A stretch of 64,000 nucleotides of DNA from an uncultured Acidobacteriota bacterium. Its GTDB lineage: Bacteria; Acidobacteriota; Vicinamibacteria; Fen-336. The position numbers and the translations under genes are program-made. Each line of letters begins with the position of its first letter. Position 1 is the stretch's first letter. The stretch is taken from NCBI GenBank assembly GCA_963720545.1, contig OY970399.1, positions 3,347,022 through 3,411,021 on the forward strand, given 5' to 3'. Positions 19,977 to 45,129 of the stretch are shown in pieces. A model generated the notes under the pieces. It was not told where the DNA came from, made no database searches, and saw only the letters and a list, made by a program, of their open reading frames with translations.

Positions 19977-22730
<2,754 letters not shown>

Positions 22731-23249: not shown

Positions 23250-24090
23250 TTACGGCGTGATGTCGAGCGCCACGTCGAGGGCGGGGACGCTGTGCGTCAG
23301 CCAACCCAGGGAGAGCAGGTCGACACCGGTTTCCGCGACGGCGCGCGCGGTTTGCGGGGTGATGCCGCCGGAGGCTTCGGTAATGGCACGGCCGCGGCAC
23401 AGCGCCACGGCTTCGCGCAGGGTGGCGAGGTCCATGTTGTCGAGCAGCACGGTGTCGATCCCGAGCGCGAGGGCGTCGCGCAGCTGGTCCAGCGTGTCCA
23501 CTTCCACTTCCACCTTCGTCAGGTGCCCCGCCGACGCCTGCACGCGGCGGATGGCTTCGGCGATGCCGCCGGCCGCGGCGATGTGGTTGTCCTTCACCAG
23601 CACCGCGTCGTCGAGGCCAAAGCGATGGTTGCTGCCGCCGCCGACGCGCACCGCGTACTTCTCGAGCACGCGCAGCAGCGGTGTCGTCTTGCGGGTGCAC
23701 GTGACCCGTGCGTTCGTGCCCGCGAGGCTCGCCACCACGTCGCGCGTGGTGGTGGCGATGCCGCACATCCGTCCCAGCACGTTCAGCGCCACGCGCTCGG
23801 CGGAGAGCACGGCGCGCGCGCTCCCGGAGAGGCTCGCGATCGATGTGCCGGCCGCAACGTCGGCGCCGTCCGCGTGGCGCACGGTGGACTCCATCCGGGG
23901 GTCGAGCAGCCGCAAGGCTGCGAGTGCTATGTCGACGCCGGCGACGCGTCCCGCGCCACGCAGGATCATCTCGGCCCGAGCCCGTGCGCCCGGCGCCACG
24001 ATGGCATCGGTCGTGACGTCGCCCGCACCGCCCAGGTCCTCGCGCAGCGCCGCTTTCAGGAAGTCCTCGTACAGGAGCGGGTTCAGCATC
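23250..24090 (-). CDS. nadC: Nicotinate-nucleotide pyrophosphorylase (quinolinate phosphoribosyltransferase)
   Basis: 280 aa from ATG 24090; NadC-like N-terminus (LREDLGGAGDVTT) and C-terminal TIM-barrel motifs. Confidence 0.85.
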
Positions 24091-25644
24091 CTGCGGACGT
24101 TAGCGCGTCGGCCACCGCGCGCGGCAGGGCCGACTCGCTGCGGTGCGCCCAGCGCGCGTCGGCAGCGGGGTAGTCCTCGCGGAAATGGCCGCCGCGGCTC
24201 TCGCGTCGCTCGAGCGCGGCCGCGGCGATGAGGGCGCCGCAAAGCGCCATGTTGGCGGCCTCGCTCGCGCCCGGCGGGATGCGCGCCGCGATGGCGGCGA
24301 TCGTGGCGATGGCGCGGCGCAGGCCTTCCTCGTTGCGATAGAGCCCGACGTTGCGCCACATGGTTTCGCGCAGCTCGGCGACCAGCGCCGGGTCCACCTG
24401 CGCCGCGGCGCCGTTCGCCTCCAGCTCGGCGCGCACGCCGTCCGGAACCGCCGGCGCGGACGCATGCAGTGCGCCTGCGATGTCGATCGCCACGCGCCCG
24501 CCGAACACGACGCCTTCGAGCAGCGAGTTGCTCGCGAGCCGGTTCGCGCCATGGACGCCGGTCGATGCCGCTTCGCCGCACGCCCACAATCCGGGCAGCG
24601 AGGTGCGGCCGGCGCCGTCCACCGCGATTCCGCCCATGTGATAGTGCGCCGCCGGCGCCACCGGCACCAGGTCGCGTCGCGGGTCGAGGCCGTGCTGCGC
24701 GCACAAGGCGAACACGGTTGGGAACATTTCCGGGAACGAGGCGCCCACCGCGGTGCGCGCGTCGAGGAACGCCTCGCCGCCGCTGTCGAGCTGCCGCGCG
24801 ATGGCGCGGGCCACGATGTCGCGCGCAGCAAGCTCGCCCGCCGGGTCCGAGTCGAACAGGAAGCGCCGGCCGTGGCCGTCGACGATGGCGGCGCCGTGGC
24901 CGCGCAGCGCCTCGGTGAGCAGCGGCATCGGGTCGTCGCCCACCGCCAGCGCCGTGGGGTGGAACTGGACGAACTCGAGGTCGGCGAGCCGCGCGCCGGC
25001 GCGCGCCGCCATCGCGAGCCCGTCGCCGGTGGCCTCGACCGGGTTGGTGGTGCGCGAATAGACGCGGCCGAGTCCGCCGGTGGCGATGATGACGGCCTTC
25101 GCAAGGTACAGCGTGAGCTCGCCCGAAGCGTCGCGCGCCACGACCCCCTGCACGCGGCCGTTCGCCACCGCGAGGTCGCAGGCGAAGGTCTTCTCGTGCA
25201 CGATGACCCACGGCGCCTGGCGCGCCGCTTCGCTCAGCGCGCGCACGATTTCGGCGCCGGTGGCGTCGCGCGCGTGCAGGATGCGCGGCCGGCTGTGCGC
25301 CGCTTCGCGCGCCAGCGCCAGGTGGTCGTCGGCATCGCGATCGAAGCGCACGCCGAGCGCCAGCAGCTTGCGCACGGTCGCCGGCCCTTCTTCCGTGAGG
25401 ATCGCGACCGCCTCGGCATCGGCGAGACCGCCGGCCACCGCCACCGTGTCGCGCGCGTGCAGTTGCGGCGAGTCGTCCGCCGCCACGGCGGCGGCCATGC
25501 CGCCCTGCGCGTACGAGCTGGAGCCGCCGGCGCCGAACGCCGCCTTGGTGATCACCACCACCCGCCGCGGCGCGAGGTCGAGTGCCGCCGTCAGGCCGGC
25601 AACGCCCGCGCCGACGATGACGACATCCGCTGCGTCGTCCTTCA
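24083..25644 (-). CDS. nadB: L-aspartate oxidase
   Basis: GTG start at 25644; FAD motif VVIVGAGVAGL; flavoprotein motifs (HYHMGG, RLASNSL); overlaps the nadC start by 8 bp. Confidence 0.85.
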
Positions 25645-26664
25645 CCGCGCGGGCTCCGGGCCGATCGCCAGCATGCGCTCGACCGCCTGGCGCGCGCGGC
25701 CGGCAACTTCCGGCGCCACCGTCACCTCGTAGCGCAGGTGCAGCAGCGAGTCGTAGATCTTCGGCAGCGTGATGCGCTTCATGTGCGGGCAGAAGTTGCA
25801 GGGCCGGATGAACTCGGTGCCCGGCGCCATCACCGCGACGTTGTCGCTCATCGAGCACTCGGTGATCATCACCACGCGCGCCGGCCTGCGTTGCGTGACG
25901 TGGCGGATCATCCCCGACGTGGAGCCGACGAAGTCGGCTTCGGCGAGCACGTCGGGCGGGCATTCGGGATGCGCGATCACCTCGACGCCGGGGTTGAGGC
26001 GTCGGTACTCGCGGATCTCGGCGCCGGTGAAGCGCTCGTGCACCTCGCAGTGGCCCGTCCACAGGACGATCTCGACCTTGGTCTTGCTCGCGACGTACTT
26101 GCCGAGGTATTCGTCGGGCAGGAAGATCACCCGCGGTACGTTCAGCGATTCCACCACGCGCACGGCGTTCGACGACGTGCAGCAGATGTCCGACTCGGCC
26201 TTCACCTCGGCCGAGGTGTTGACGTAGGTGACGACCGGCACGCCGGGGTAGCGCTGCTTCAGCAGGCGCACGTCTTCGGCGGTGATCGACTCGGCGAGCG
26301 AACAGCCGGCCCGCGTGTCGGGGATGAGCACGGTCTTGCCGGGGTTCAGCACCTTGGCGGTCTCGGCCATGAACTGCACGCCGGCCATCACGATGACGTC
26401 GGCCTTGGTGTTCGCCGCTTCGCGCGCGAGGCCCAGCGAGTCGCCCTGGAAGTCGGCGACGCCGTGGAAGATCTCAGGCGTCTGGTACGTATGGGCGAGC
26501 ACCACGGCGTTGCGTTCGCGCTTCAGGGTGTTGATGGCGTCGATGTACGGCGCGAACACCGGCCACTCGATTTCCGGGACCACGCCCTTGACGCGATCCC
26601 AGGCTGCCGCGGTGCGCGCGGCCACCTCGGGCGTGAATGCCAGGCTGCTCATGTCTTCGCTCAC
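25642..26664 (-). CDS. nadA: Quinolinate synthase
   Basis: 340 aa; NadA motifs (VLAHTYQ, conserved Cys residues, PECPP). Confidence 0.9.
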
Positions 26665-26669
26665 CTCAT

Positions 26670-26699
26670 ATGCTCAGAAAGAGCATTAACGATGTGCTC
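26670..26699 (-). promoter_or_regulatory. Candidate operator: overlapping AT-rich inverted repeats between the nadA -10 element and the nadA start
   Basis: ATGCTC-agaaa-GAGCAT (26670-26686) and GAGCA-N9-TGCTC (26681-26699) in an otherwise GC-rich region; candidate NrtR site because nrtR lies immediately upstream. Confidence 0.4.
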
Positions 26700-26728
26700 A
26701 GGTTACGACCGCGCGTACGGGCTGTCAA
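26700..26728 (-). promoter_or_regulatory. Candidate sigma70-type promoter for nadABC (TTGACA-17 nt-TAACCT on the minus strand)
   Basis: Reverse complement of 26723-26728 is TTGACA and of 26700-26705 is TAACCT, with a 17-nt spacer, ~35 nt upstream of the nadA start. Confidence 0.45.
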
Positions 26729-26735
26729 GCGGCGC

Positions 26736-27644
26736 TCAGGCGCGGTTGGGGCGGCCGACTCCGGGCGCCAGGCGCTCGCGCCAGACGTCGCGGCGGAAGC
26801 GGAACAGCTCGGCGGGCCGGCCGGCGGTGCGCGCCGCGAACTTGCCGGTGCCTTCCACGAGCCCGGCGGTGGCCATCAGCCTGCGGAAGTTCTGCTTGTG
26901 CAGCCGATATCCGGCGAGCGCTTCCACCAGCCGCTGCAGCTGCAGCAGCGTGAAGGCGCGCGGCAGCAGCTCGAACACCACCGGCCGGTACCGGATCTTG
27001 CCGCGCAGCCGTCCCAGCGCCGTGGCCAGGATGCGGCGGTGGTCGAGGTCGAGCGGCTCGCCGGCCAGCGAGCGCGTGGCTTCGGAAAGGAGCCGCGCTT
27101 CGTAGAGCAACTCGTAGCGCTCGAGAACGCGGTCGGCGTCCCACGAAGCGCCGCGCAGGCCGAAGGCGACGTCGATACGCTCGCGGCGCAGCGCGCGCGC
27201 CTTCTGTTCCTTCTCCTGACGGGTCCACGCATCGAGCGCCGCGGTCAGCGGCTTGAGCGCGGCGGTGCGGCGTTCGCGTCCGTCCTCCCAGGGAAGGAAG
27301 TCGTAGATGTTGCGCCAATGCGCTTCGCCGCCACCGCCGAGCGCGCCCTCGCGGACCAGCGCGAGGTAGGCGACCGAGATCAGGCGCTGGCCATCGGCCG
27401 ACGGCCCGAGACGGTCGCGGTCGCCGAACGTGTAAAGCTGCTCGACGTAGCCGAGCTCGAGCCCGGACTGCTGGCGCACCCAGGAGCGCAGGCCGAGGTC
27501 GAGCGTGCGGTCGCCGGCCGGATCGAGCGGACCGAAGGGCAAGGCGCCCGGATGGCCCCTGCGGCTCACGATGAGGACACGCGGCTCGTCATCGGTGACG
27601 GCGACGACCACGGCGCTCAGCCCGATGACGACGCTCTCAGCCAA
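26736..27644 (-). CDS. nrtR: Nudix-related transcriptional regulator of NAD metabolism (NrtR-like): degenerate Nudix domain plus C-terminal winged helix
   Basis: Nudix-like N-domain whose box reads RSWVRQQSG (no catalytic Glu pair); C-terminal region with LLPRAFTLLQLQRLVEALAG; located directly upstream of nadABC. Confidence 0.7.
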   Translation of the reverse strand: MAESVVIGLSAVVVAVTDDEPRVLIVSRRGHPGALPFGPLDPAGDRTLDLGLRSWVRQQSGLELGYVEQLYTFGDRDRLGPSADGQRLISVAYLALVREGALGGGGEAHWRNIYDFLPWEDGRERRTAALKPLTAALDAWTRQEKEQKARALRRERIDVAFGLRGASWDADRVLERYELLYEARLLSEATRSLAGEPLDLDHRRILATALGRLRGKIRYRPVVFELLPRAFTLLQLQRLVEALAGYRLHKQNFRRLMATAGLVEGTGKFAARTAGRPAELFRFRRDVWRERLAPGVGRPNRA

Positions 27645-27646
27645 GC

Positions 27647-28399
27647 TCAGTCCTTCTTCGCCCCTTGCTTCGCCACCGCCTGGGCGGCGCGCTTCACGGC
27701 TTCAGGATCGCCGAGGTAGAAGTGCCGCACCGGCTTCAGGCCGGCATCGAGCTCGTAGACGAGCGGCACGCCGGTTGGAATGTTGAGCTCGGTGATCTCC
27801 TGCTCGGAGATGCCGTCGAGATACATCACCAGCGCGCGGAGGCTGTTGCCGTGCGCGGCGACCAGCACCCGCTGGCCGGCCCGCAGCGCCGGCGCAATGG
27901 TCTCGTGCCAATAGGGAAGGAAGCGCGCGACGGTGTCCTTCAACGACTCTGTGAGCGGCGCGCTGATGCCGGCGCCGAGATTCTGGTAGCGCGCGTCGCG
28001 GCCTTCATAGCGCTCGTCGTCCCGAGCGAGCGGCGGCGGCGGGTCGCCGTAGCTGCGGCGCCAGACCTTCACCTGCGCCTCGCCGAACTTCGCCGCGGTC
28101 TCGGCCTTGTTCAGTCCCTGCAAAGCGCCGTAGTGGCGCTCGTTGAGGCGCCAGGTTGGAAACACCGGCAGCCACATGAGGTCCATCTCGTCCAGGGCGA
28201 TCCAGAGCGTGCGGATGGCGCGCTTGAGGAGCGACGTGTACGCGAGGTCGAAGGTGTAGCCGCCCGCGCGCAGCAGCCGGCCGGCTTCGCGCGCCTCCTC
28301 GCGCCCCTTCGGCGAGAGGTCCACGTCGGTCCAGCCCGTGAAGCGGTTCTCGAGGTTCCATTGGCTTTCGCCGTGACGCAGCAGCACGAGTGTGGGCAT
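27647..28399 (-). CDS. gpmA: 2,3-bisphosphoglycerate-dependent phosphoglycerate mutase
   Basis: 250 aa; [12 protein letters not shown] catalytic His motif and GpmA-like overall sequence. Confidence 0.9.
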
Positions 28400-43512: not shown

Positions 43513-44247
43513 CTAGAGGACGTCAGTACCGTCTTCCATCTCCAGCACCAGCAGGGTGCCGGCCACCGAGAGGGCCGGCGCCAGCAGGAAGGCGCCAAGC
43601 GGCACCAGGAAGATGAGGATGCCCGCGAGGCCGAAGCCGAGCGTCTCGGGGCGCAGGCGTTTGTGCCAGGCGCGGCGCGCGGCGAAGTCGAGGCCGCGGC
43701 GCGTCAGCGGCGCGTCGGTCTGTTGCAGCGCCAGCGCCTGCGAGGCCCAGAGCGCTGCCAGGAACGGTCCCACAACCGGTATCAGCGGGATGGGCAGCGT
43801 GACAAGCGCGGCTGCCAGGAAGAACAAGGCTCCCTTCACGGCCTGCATCGCCTCCCAGCCCGCTCCGTGGCTGCGGTCGATGACGTGGCCGCGCACCAGC
43901 TGCTCCACCCGGCGCGACAAGCGCTCCAGGACCGGCGCCGCCAGCAGCAGGGCCGACGCCAGCCCCACCACCATGCCGGCCGCGACCAGGCCGATCCAGA
44001 GGAGAGCGGTGAGCGGCAGGTGCAGCAGGCCCGGCAGCGATCGTGAAATGAGCAGCGGCTCGAGCCGCGGGGCGATGAACAGGCCGAGGATGCCGCCAAG
44101 GCCCCAGAAGAGCACGGCCAGTACCGCGGGCAGCGCCGCCAGCGGCCACGTGCCCGGGTGACGCACGAGGAACGCGATCCCGGCGAGCACCTGCCACGCG
44201 CCGGCGGCGATGCGCCTGGGCCAGCCGGGCAGGGAGGGCATGGCCAT
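43513..44247 (-). CDS. Multi-pass membrane protein (EI24/CysZ-like, tentative)
   Basis: 244 aa from ATG 44247; ~6 hydrophobic helices; family assignment from overall topology only. Confidence 0.5.
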   Translation of the reverse strand: MAMPSLPGWPRRIAAGAWQVLAGIAFLVRHPGTWPLAALPAVLAVLFWGLGGILGLFIAPRLEPLLISRSLPGLLHLPLTALLWIGLVAAGMVVGLASALLLAAPVLERLSRRVEQLVRGHVIDRSHGAGWEAMQAVKGALFFLAAALVTLPIPLIPVVGPFLAALWASQALALQQTDAPLTRRGLDFAARRAWHKRLRPETLGFGLAGILIFLVPLGAFLLAPALSVAGTLLVLEMEDGTDVL

Positions 44248-44271
44248 GAGGCTAAGGCCCCGTCTTCCCGT

Positions 44272-45129
44272 GTCAAAATCCGGCGCGGAGGCGATCCCTT
44301 GAATATCGGTTGGCTGCACCCGGTCGTCGTGCATTTCGCAATCGTCCTGGTCCTCGTCGGCGTGCTGTTCCGCCTGCTGTCGCTCGCGAGCAGCAGCCGC
44401 CTGTCTTTCGCGAGCCCGGCCGCAACCACGCTGATCCTCGCGGGCGCCGTCGCCGTGTTCTTCGCGTCGCAGTCCGGCCGCGATGCCCATGGGCCGGTGG
44501 AACGCGTGCCCGACTCGCGCGAAGTGGTGGAGCTGCACGAGGCCGCGGCCAAGTGGAGCACCAACTTCACCTACGCCCTGGCGCTCATCGAGGTGGGGCT
44601 GCTGTTCCTGCGCAACTCGCGCTACCGCCGCCATGCGCTGATCGCGGCGTCGGTGGTCGGCCTGTTCGCCGGATCGACGATGATCCTGACCGCGTGGCGC
44701 GGCGGGAACCTCGTCTACGCGCACGCGGGCGGCGTCGGCATCCGTTCCGGGGAATCGGCGGACGTGGGCAACCTGCTGCTCGCCGGCCTCTACCATCAGG
44801 CGCTGCAGGACCGCGAAGCGGGCCGGCGGCAGGAGGCGGCGGCGCTCGCCGACCTCGCGCTGCGCCGCTTCCCGTCGAGCATCGCGGTGCGCATGTTCCA
44901 CGCCGAATCGATCCTGCTCGACCGCCAGGACCCGTCGGCAACGCTCGCGGCCCTGGGCACGATCACGGTGCCGCCGGGCGAGGGCCGCGAGGTCGCTTAC
45001 GGGCTGCTGAAGGTCGATGCGCTGCAGGCTGCGGGCCGGCCCGGGGAAGCGCAGGCCGAACTGGACAGGCTCGCGAAGGAGTTCCCGACGAGCGGTCGGA
45101 TCAAGGCCCGCCTCGGCAGGGGCCGTTAG
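44272..45129 (+). CDS. Membrane protein (DUF2231-like N-terminal 4-TM domain) with C-terminal TPR-like region
   Basis: HPVVVHFAIVL motif at the first TM; TPR-like helical C-terminus; start uncertain (GTG 44272 or TTG 44299). Confidence 0.45.
   Translation, partial: VKIRRGGDPLNIGWLHPVVVHFAIVLVLVGVLFRLLSLASSSRLSFASPAATTLILAGAVAVFFASQSGRDAHGPVERVPDSREVVELHEAAAKWSTNFTYALALIEVGLLFLRNSRYRRHALIAASVVGLFAGSTMILTAWRGGNLVYAHAGGVGIRSGESADVGNLLLAGLYHQALQDREAGRRQEAAALADLALRRFPSSIAVRMFHAESILLDRQDPSATLAALGTITVPPGEGREVAYGLLKVDALQAAGRPGEAQAELDRLAKEFPTSGRIKARLGRGR

Follow-up and report, generated by a model that had tools for sequence, protein, structure and literature searches.

The window, i.e., the whole 64-kb (64,000-nt) stretch of DNA that was analyzed, carries on its minus strand and in this order gpmA, a gene encoding a 302-aa regulator, a short gap, and nadA-nadB-nadC. 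The genes are as follows (coordinates refer to the window):

27647 to 28399, minus strand: gpmA, encoding 2,3-bisphosphoglycerate-dependent phosphoglycerate mutase, 250 aa (NCBIfam NF010713, 407 bits against a cutoff of 305)
26736 to 27644, minus strand: nadQ, encoding a regulator of the NadQ/COG4111 family, 302 aa, TTG start, with an N-terminal Nudix-like domain and a C-terminal winged helix at residues 223-283
26738 to 26736, minus strand: TGA stop codon of nadQ
25642 to 26652, minus strand: nadA, encoding quinolinate synthase, 336 aa from ATG 26652 (Pfam NadA, E = 7.7e-115; NCBIfam, 374 bits against a cutoff of 294)
24083 to 25645, minus strand: nadB, encoding L-aspartate oxidase, 520 aa, GTG start (Pfam FAD_binding_2, E = 3.4e-84, and Succ_DH_flav_C)
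23250 to 24089, minus strand: nadC, encoding quinolinate phosphoribosyltransferase, 279 aa, ATG start (TIGR00078, 311 bits against 198; Pfam QRPTase_N and QRPTase_C)

All four enzymes (gpmA, nadA, nadB, and nadC) scored above the curated cutoffs in the family scans. The preliminary description of this DNA had placed the regulator upstream of nadA-nadB-nadC on the same strand, with gpmA immediately upstream of the regulator, and this arrangement is confirmed. No tRNA or rRNA was found within the 64-kb window. Elsewhere in the window, a 917-aa ORF on the plus strand (19977-22730) has a zinc-ribbon-like CxxC motif at its N-terminus and a region resembling Ser/Thr protein kinases, after which numerous membrane segments are predicted.

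The GTG start of nadB overlaps the stop codon of nadA as GTGA, with the same 4-nt overlap found in relatives, and nadC begins with an ATG inside the end of nadB, an overlap of 7 nt. Thus, the three genes form one operon, and nadA-nadB-nadC are translationally coupled. The end of gpmA and the TTG start of nadQ are separated by 2 nt (27642-27649); these two genes are probably co-transcribed, which would put an NAD regulator gene together with a glycolytic gene in this clade. For nadA, ATG 26652 is a more likely start than the alternative GTG 26664. The sequence GAGGTGA lies 8 nt upstream of this ATG, the exact 336-aa product is already recorded, and homologues align from query residue 6-8. With this start, the untranslated gap between nadQ and nadA measures 83 nt rather than the 71 bp given previously. 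The regulatory elements that had been assigned to the gap are all there.

The regulator had been labeled as NrtR. However, a search of solved structures matched its residues 9-299 to residues 46-332 of PDB chain 7q91_A, "NADQ transcription factor" (E = 3.3e-82, 279 bits), and its identity to the NadQ of Agrobacterium is ~55%. By this homology, the 302-aa protein is a member of the NadQ (COG4111) family and a cousin of NrtR. This family was named by Rodionov et al. (2008; PMC2330246), who noted a C-terminal domain as in NrtR, a highly divergent N-terminal domain, and clustering with NAD genes. NadQ, with its divergent N-terminal domain, has been treated as a family separate from NrtR (Rodionov et al., 2008, PMC2330246; Leyn et al., 2016, PMC5343134), and it is counted, along with NadR, NiaR, and NrtR, among the proteins that repress the genes of NAD synthesis (PMC12421817). 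The family is large, with all 8000 of the 8000 candidates scored having E <= 1e-5, and homologues occur on 270 plasmid or chromid records, mostly from Rhizobium. The exact 302-aa protein is already on record. One homologue is named "NAD regulator" by NCBI; otherwise, the close homologues are named "hypothetical protein" in those sources that name them.

The domain-level results agree with two other claims of the preliminary description. First, a C-terminal winged helix is indeed present, as the Pfam model NrtR_WHD (PF21906) matches residues 223-283 over its full length (1-61) with E = 6e-21. Second, the Nudix box is degenerate, as expected of a sensor and not of a hydrolase. No Pfam NUDIX domain was found in the regulator even at E <= 10, and the Nudix-box region (GPLDPAGDRTLDLGLRSWVRQQSGL) retains 0 of the catalytic glutamates of GX5EX7REUXEEXGU in family alignment A1. 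The box is more degenerate than the consensus of the NadQ family itself, which keeps one glutamate (RSWVRQQSG in the window versus RxWVREQTG).

If the protein were NrtR proper, it would be an ADP-ribose-sensing, Nudix-related repressor acting on an NrtR-type operator. Apart from the winged helix, this identity has in its favor weak N-terminal matches to Nudix domains from NrtR and AraR structures (3gz8, E = 0.004; 5bs6 domain 1, E = 0.009) and the existence of nrtR-nadABC arrangements in Actinobacteria (PMC6800001). However, the full-length match to NadQ is better than that to any NrtR by ~70 orders of magnitude. The NrtR structures 3gz5 and 2fml match only about residues 188-288 (or 196-288) of the regulator, and these structures and AraR (5bs6) match essentially the winged helix only. 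The NrtR equivalog of NCBIfam (NF050029) scored 69 bits against a cutoff of 400, with an alignment confined to residues 197-287. The DNA site in front of nadA, which bears on the same question, lies among the following elements of the gap:

26723 to 26728, minus strand: -35 box TTGACA, read from the sequence
26700 to 26705, minus strand: candidate -10 box TAACCT, 17 nt past the -35 box
26694 to 26699, minus strand: orphan half-site-like GAGCAC, directly after the -10 box, without a left arm and without a matrix match
26668 to 26688, minus-strand reading: NadQ operator TAATGCTCTTTCTGAGCATAT, predicted from its matrix score, perfect 6-nt arms, and consensus match
26661 to 26667, minus strand: Shine-Dalgarno sequence GAGGTGA of nadA, read from the sequence

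On the minus strand, the gap thus reads gcgccgc-TTGACA-gcccgtacgcgcggtcg-TAACCT-GAGCAC-atcgt-TAATGCTCTTTCTGAGCATAT-GAGGTGA-gcgaagac-ATG.

The inverted-repeat search identified the core of the palindrome as ATGCTC-N5-GAGCAT at 26670-26686, in which two perfect arms of 6 nt enclose a 5-nt spacer; the whole 21-bp operator has the halves TAATGCTC-TTTCT-GAGCATAT. In the literature, the NadQ consensus is given as ttATRCTCannntGAGYATaa (Leyn et al., 2016; PMC5343134), and the site in the window (taATGCTCtttctGAGCATat) matches 12 of its 12 core bases. The G+C content of the operator 21-mer is 33%, compared with 69.9% for the window, in which only 23 of the 63,980 21-mers are so AT-rich. The motif ATRCTC-N5-GAGYAT is unique in the 64-kb window even when one mismatch is allowed, and dinucleotide shuffles contain 0.16 matches on average. 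For scoring, a NadQ position matrix (TTATRCTCANNNTGAGYATAA; 23.6 bits of information) was built from 109 sites upstream of nadA in 57 loci of other genomes, with the window left out. In the scan of the 64 kb with this matrix, the operator scored 26.7 bits and the next best position -7.9 bits, and the best score among 20 shuffled windows was 6.3 bits. The palindrome at 26668-26688 is therefore a predicted NadQ binding site.

The same palindrome had been proposed as an NrtR motif, and this part of the earlier interpretation does not hold. NrtR operators are 21-bp palindromes with the conserved core GT-N7-AC (PMC2330246). This core is absent here; the operator in the window has CT-N7-AG at the equivalent positions and CTC-N5-GAG as its conserved core. 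With both the protein and its site differing in this way, we consider it very improbable that the regulator is NrtR proper. No second site scoring with the NadQ matrix was found elsewhere in the 64 kb, so nadQ does not appear to be autoregulated here. This agrees with the published regulons of NadQ, which include the regulator gene only in some groups (PMC5343134).

Upstream of the operator, the gap contains what had been called a near-consensus promoter. This was overstated; the -35 box is perfect and a 17-nt spacer is present, but TAACCT matches TATAAT at only three of six positions (A2 and T6 are kept), and TTGACA-17-TAACCT was not called by our consensus promoter scan. Two other observations concern this putative promoter. 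TTGACA has only two copies in the 64 kb when both strands are counted, and the copy in the gap coincides in position and spacing with the TTGACA of the distal promoter of relatives. That promoter was called by the scan, and its -10 box at this spacing is TATTCT, TAATAT, or TAGCAT. If TAACCT is the -10 box, transcription would start near 26693. The terminator scan found no terminator-like site between nadQ and nadA on the minus strand. The other TTGACA of the window is part of TTGACA-16-TAGCCT at 44249-44276 on the minus strand; an ATG ~10 nt past the -10 box heads a minus-strand ORF ending at 43523, which suggests a near-leaderless transcript.

The preliminary description had also pointed to overlapping inverted repeats in the gap. 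Both repeats are present, but only ATGCTC-N5-GAGCAT corresponds to the operator. We rejected GAGCA-N9-TGCTC as an operator; it has 5-nt arms, the wrong spacing, and no conserved counterpart, and it arises from the lone GAGCAC. This orphan may be a remnant of a lost distal operator (see below). The proposed placement of a repressor site was correct, with a palindromic operator located between the promoter-like element and nadA.

With a start near 26693, the palindrome would be transcribed, and the predicted fold of the 5'-UTR contains a 6-bp hairpin, AUGCUC-UUUCU-GAGCAU. It could then be asked whether the palindrome acts as RNA by controlling the stability or translation of nadA mRNA. However, this fold is no better than those of shuffled sequences (z = -0.63; an equal or better fold was obtained for 50 of 200 shuffles), and the hairpin leaves out the Shine-Dalgarno sequence. 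Moreover, the half-sites vary independently at one degenerate position in related loci. Here, 13 of the 57 proximal sites have A/C or T/C at positions 5/17, which are combinations that cannot pair, and such independent variation is as expected for protein-DNA recognition. Among the distal copies of the palindrome in relatives, those of 39 of 52 loci show C/T at positions 8/14; the distal copies also lie upstream of the -10 box and so are not transcribed from that promoter. Among RNA families, neither the nadA motif/class I NAD+ riboswitch nor any other Rfam family matched the nadQ-nadA gap at E <= 10, and no Rfam match reached the gathering score in the whole 64-kb window. Between 26300 and 27100, Rfam returned only three chance-level microRNA models (E = 3.3 to 10), all located inside the nadQ coding region. 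A role of the palindrome as an RNA element is thus highly unlikely, and recognition as DNA by NadQ is the preferred reading.

For comparison, we took 80 loci from other species that encode a NadQ homologue. These loci derive from Acidobacteriota, Gemmatimonadota, Acidimicrobiia, and other groups. In 60 of them, nadA is adjacent to the nadQ homologue, including 58 with nadA downstream on the same strand and two in divergent orientation. The preliminary description had set in advance that similar palindromes should occur at other NAD genes, and they do: the palindrome is found upstream of nadA in 57 of the 58 loci from other genomes with nadA downstream on the same strand, nearly always in the form TAT[G/A]CTC-N5-GAG[C/T]ATAA. 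The nearest relatives of this NadQ that carry a taxon label come from Acidobacteriota genomes assembled from metagenomes. The four closest relatives are as follows:

L089: NadQ identity 75%; the contig ends inside the gene before nadQ
L083: NadQ identity 69%; MFS<>gpmA-nadQ-nadABC synteny
L090: NadQ identity 67%; MFS<>gpmA-nadQ-nadABC synteny
L086: NadQ identity 66%; MFS<>gpmA-nadQ-nadABC synteny

In L089 (1384-1391), the promoter that follows nadQ has a TTGACA -35 box that contains the TGA stop codon of this gene.

The control region in the window differs from that of most relatives. Two NadQ sites are present in 52 of 57 loci, whereas the window has one. In the two-site form, the distal site sits inside a promoter called by the scan (TTGACA or TTGACC, a spacer of 16-18 nt, and TAGCAT), such that its right arm is the -10 box; in 40 of 52 loci, position 14 of the site, within this arm, is T rather than G. 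The four closest relatives (L089, L083, L090, and L086) also have the two-site form, and their distal site is already decaying. The window keeps TTGACA and a -10 box at the spacing seen in relatives, but it has lost the distal operator along with ~60 nt of leader, and the promoter thus abuts the proximal operator. On this comparison of sequences, the control region in the window is a derived, compact, single-operator variant, from which a hairpin found in relatives has also been lost.

This hairpin is GC-rich and is followed by a T-run on the sense strand; the two occur between the operators in 42 of the 52 two-site loci, which belong to Acidobacteriota, Alphaproteobacteria, and Gammaproteobacteria. 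Examples of two-operator regions are L042 (4024-4117), L086 (3957-4071), L018 (3954-4064), and L088 (4915-5045), and in L042 and L086, the hairpin and T-run were called terminator-like. Although the hairpins vary in sequence, their register is constant. Counted back from the proximal site, T is the predominant base from -16 through -10: 29 to 44 of 46 loci have it at the positions from -15 through -10, and 22 at -16. These positions are followed by G at -9 and CC at -6/-5, and the T-run always ends about 10 nt before the proximal operator. The claim of a hairpin rests on single-sequence folds and pattern counts. RNAalifold found no consensus structure for 30 inter-operator leaders, as their hairpins vary in both length and sequence and fail to align, and there was no Rfam match in 20 related loci. 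The form with two operators and a hairpin is also found in a cultured organism, Microvirga ossetica. On a plasmid of this species (NZ_CP016619.1; L088, 4915-5045), three NadQ-type sites precede nadA, and the NadQ homologue is annotated as "hypothetical protein."

The function of the hairpin and T-run can be read in different ways. The architecture persists in loci where other genes separate nadQ from nadA, which indicates that the hairpin is not the terminator of nadQ. The hairpin may form a roadblock-assisted attenuator or leaky terminator, in which NadQ bound to the proximal site stalls the polymerase on the U-tract. It may also generate a NadQ-controlled short RNA or serve as a terminator, with a weak second promoter behind it. 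The TTG at -11 to -9 before the proximal site has the same register as TTGACA before the distal site, and a weak second promoter is thus one reading of the element in relatives. It is conceivable, but rather doubtful, that the window holds a naturally minimal form of a NadQ control region that is more elaborate elsewhere and undescribed. If this is true, comparison between the window and its relatives would reveal what the layer of hairpin and distal site adds.

Taken together, we consider it highly probable that the locus is a NadQ-type NAD regulatory unit, in which a NadQ dimer on a single operator represses nadABC. We infer that the dimer would bind the single 21-bp palindrome between TTGACA-17-TAACCT and the ribosome-binding site of nadA. 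With the transcription start proposed above, the operator would extend from about +6 to +26 and be centered near +16, such that the bound dimer could block open-complex formation or promoter escape. Given that no terminator was found between nadQ and nadA, read-through from gpmA-nadQ is possible and may contribute to the transcription of nadABC; the bound dimer would also act as a roadblock to it. The expected outcome is repression of the de novo NAD operon nadA-nadB-nadC. The gene nadQ, which lacks its own operator, is probably expressed with gpmA. A nucleotide effector acting on the Nudix-like domain would release NadQ from DNA, and by analogy with the NadQ of Agrobacterium, this effector may be ATP. 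Reportedly, ATP weakens the DNA binding of NadQ in vitro. With a single operator instead of the two found in 52 of 57 relatives, repression in this organism may be weaker or may work differently.

The same regulator and operator could also act by another mechanism, in which most nadABC transcripts come from gpmA-nadQ read-through or start at a promoter within nadQ and NadQ is a pure elongation roadblock. In that case, TTGACA-17-TAACCT would not be the promoter in use. The weak -10 box and the uncalled promoter point in this direction, as do the distances between genes (2 nt for gpmA/nadQ and 83 nt for nadQ/nadA, with no terminator-like site on the minus strand) and the gpmA-nadQ-nadABC order kept in the closest relatives. 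However, TTGACA is very rare in a window with 70% G+C, and the copy in front of nadA lies where a promoter was called in relatives. In addition, a terminator-like hairpin follows nadQ in most relatives, and this speaks against read-through as the usual way of transcription. We regard this alternative as unlikely, and repression at the promoter in front of nadA remains the favored mechanism.

Compared with known systems, the closest counterpart is the NadQ of Agrobacterium tumefaciens (COG4111; PDB 7q91-7q94), which shares homology over the full length, including the Nudix-like N-terminal domain and the winged helix. The NadQ regulons of Proteobacteria (Rodionov et al., 2008; Leyn et al., 2016; Minazzato et al., 2022) show the same clustering with nadABC, and the operator in the window matches every core base of theirs. 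Unlike these, the system described here belongs to an uncultivated host with 70% G+C outside Proteobacteria. It further differs from NadQ systems in having a single operator past the promoter, rather than the usual pair with one overlapping the promoter, in a more degenerate Nudix box with no glutamate left, and in the probable location of nadQ within a gpmA transcription unit.

NrtR proteins, such as those of Shewanella (3gz5), Synechocystis (Slr1690), and Mycobacterium (MsNrtR), have a homologous winged helix (Pfam PF21906) and share a common design with NadQ: a Nudix-fold sensor is joined to a winged helix, the operator is a 21-bp palindrome, and the genes repressed are NAD genes. In some cases, nrtR is also located upstream of nadABC. 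They differ in that the N-terminal domain encoded in the window is not recognizably NrtR-like and in the operator core (GT-N7-AC versus CTC-N5-GAG). The effectors differ as well: NrtR responds to ADP-ribose (PMC2330246), whereas the NadQ of Agrobacterium is reported as ATP-responsive in the title of Minazzato et al. (2022). AraR of Bacteroides, which belongs to the NrtR family (PDB 5bs6), has the same two-domain fold, and both of its domains align weakly with the NadQ of the window, but it senses arabinose and regulates sugar catabolism, with no link to NAD genes. NadR of Enterobacteria and NiaR of Firmicutes and Thermotogae are functional analogues that repress nadA/nadB through palindromic operators in the promoter region (PMC2330246), but they have unrelated protein folds and operator sequences.

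In summary, this locus is a well-supported but ordinary regulatory unit, with a NadQ regulator and a textbook NadQ operator before nadABC. The hairpin and T-run of the relatives are not part of the window. The assignment corrects an annotation: the close homologues of the regulator are called "hypothetical protein" in sources that name them, and Pfam recognizes only the NrtR-type winged helix. By analogy with the characterized NadQ, ATP rather than ADP-ribose would be the first candidate for the effector. For the family as a whole, these results place NadQ and its operator, a 21-bp motif that stays essentially the same, at de novo NAD genes well beyond the Proteobacteria of the original description.
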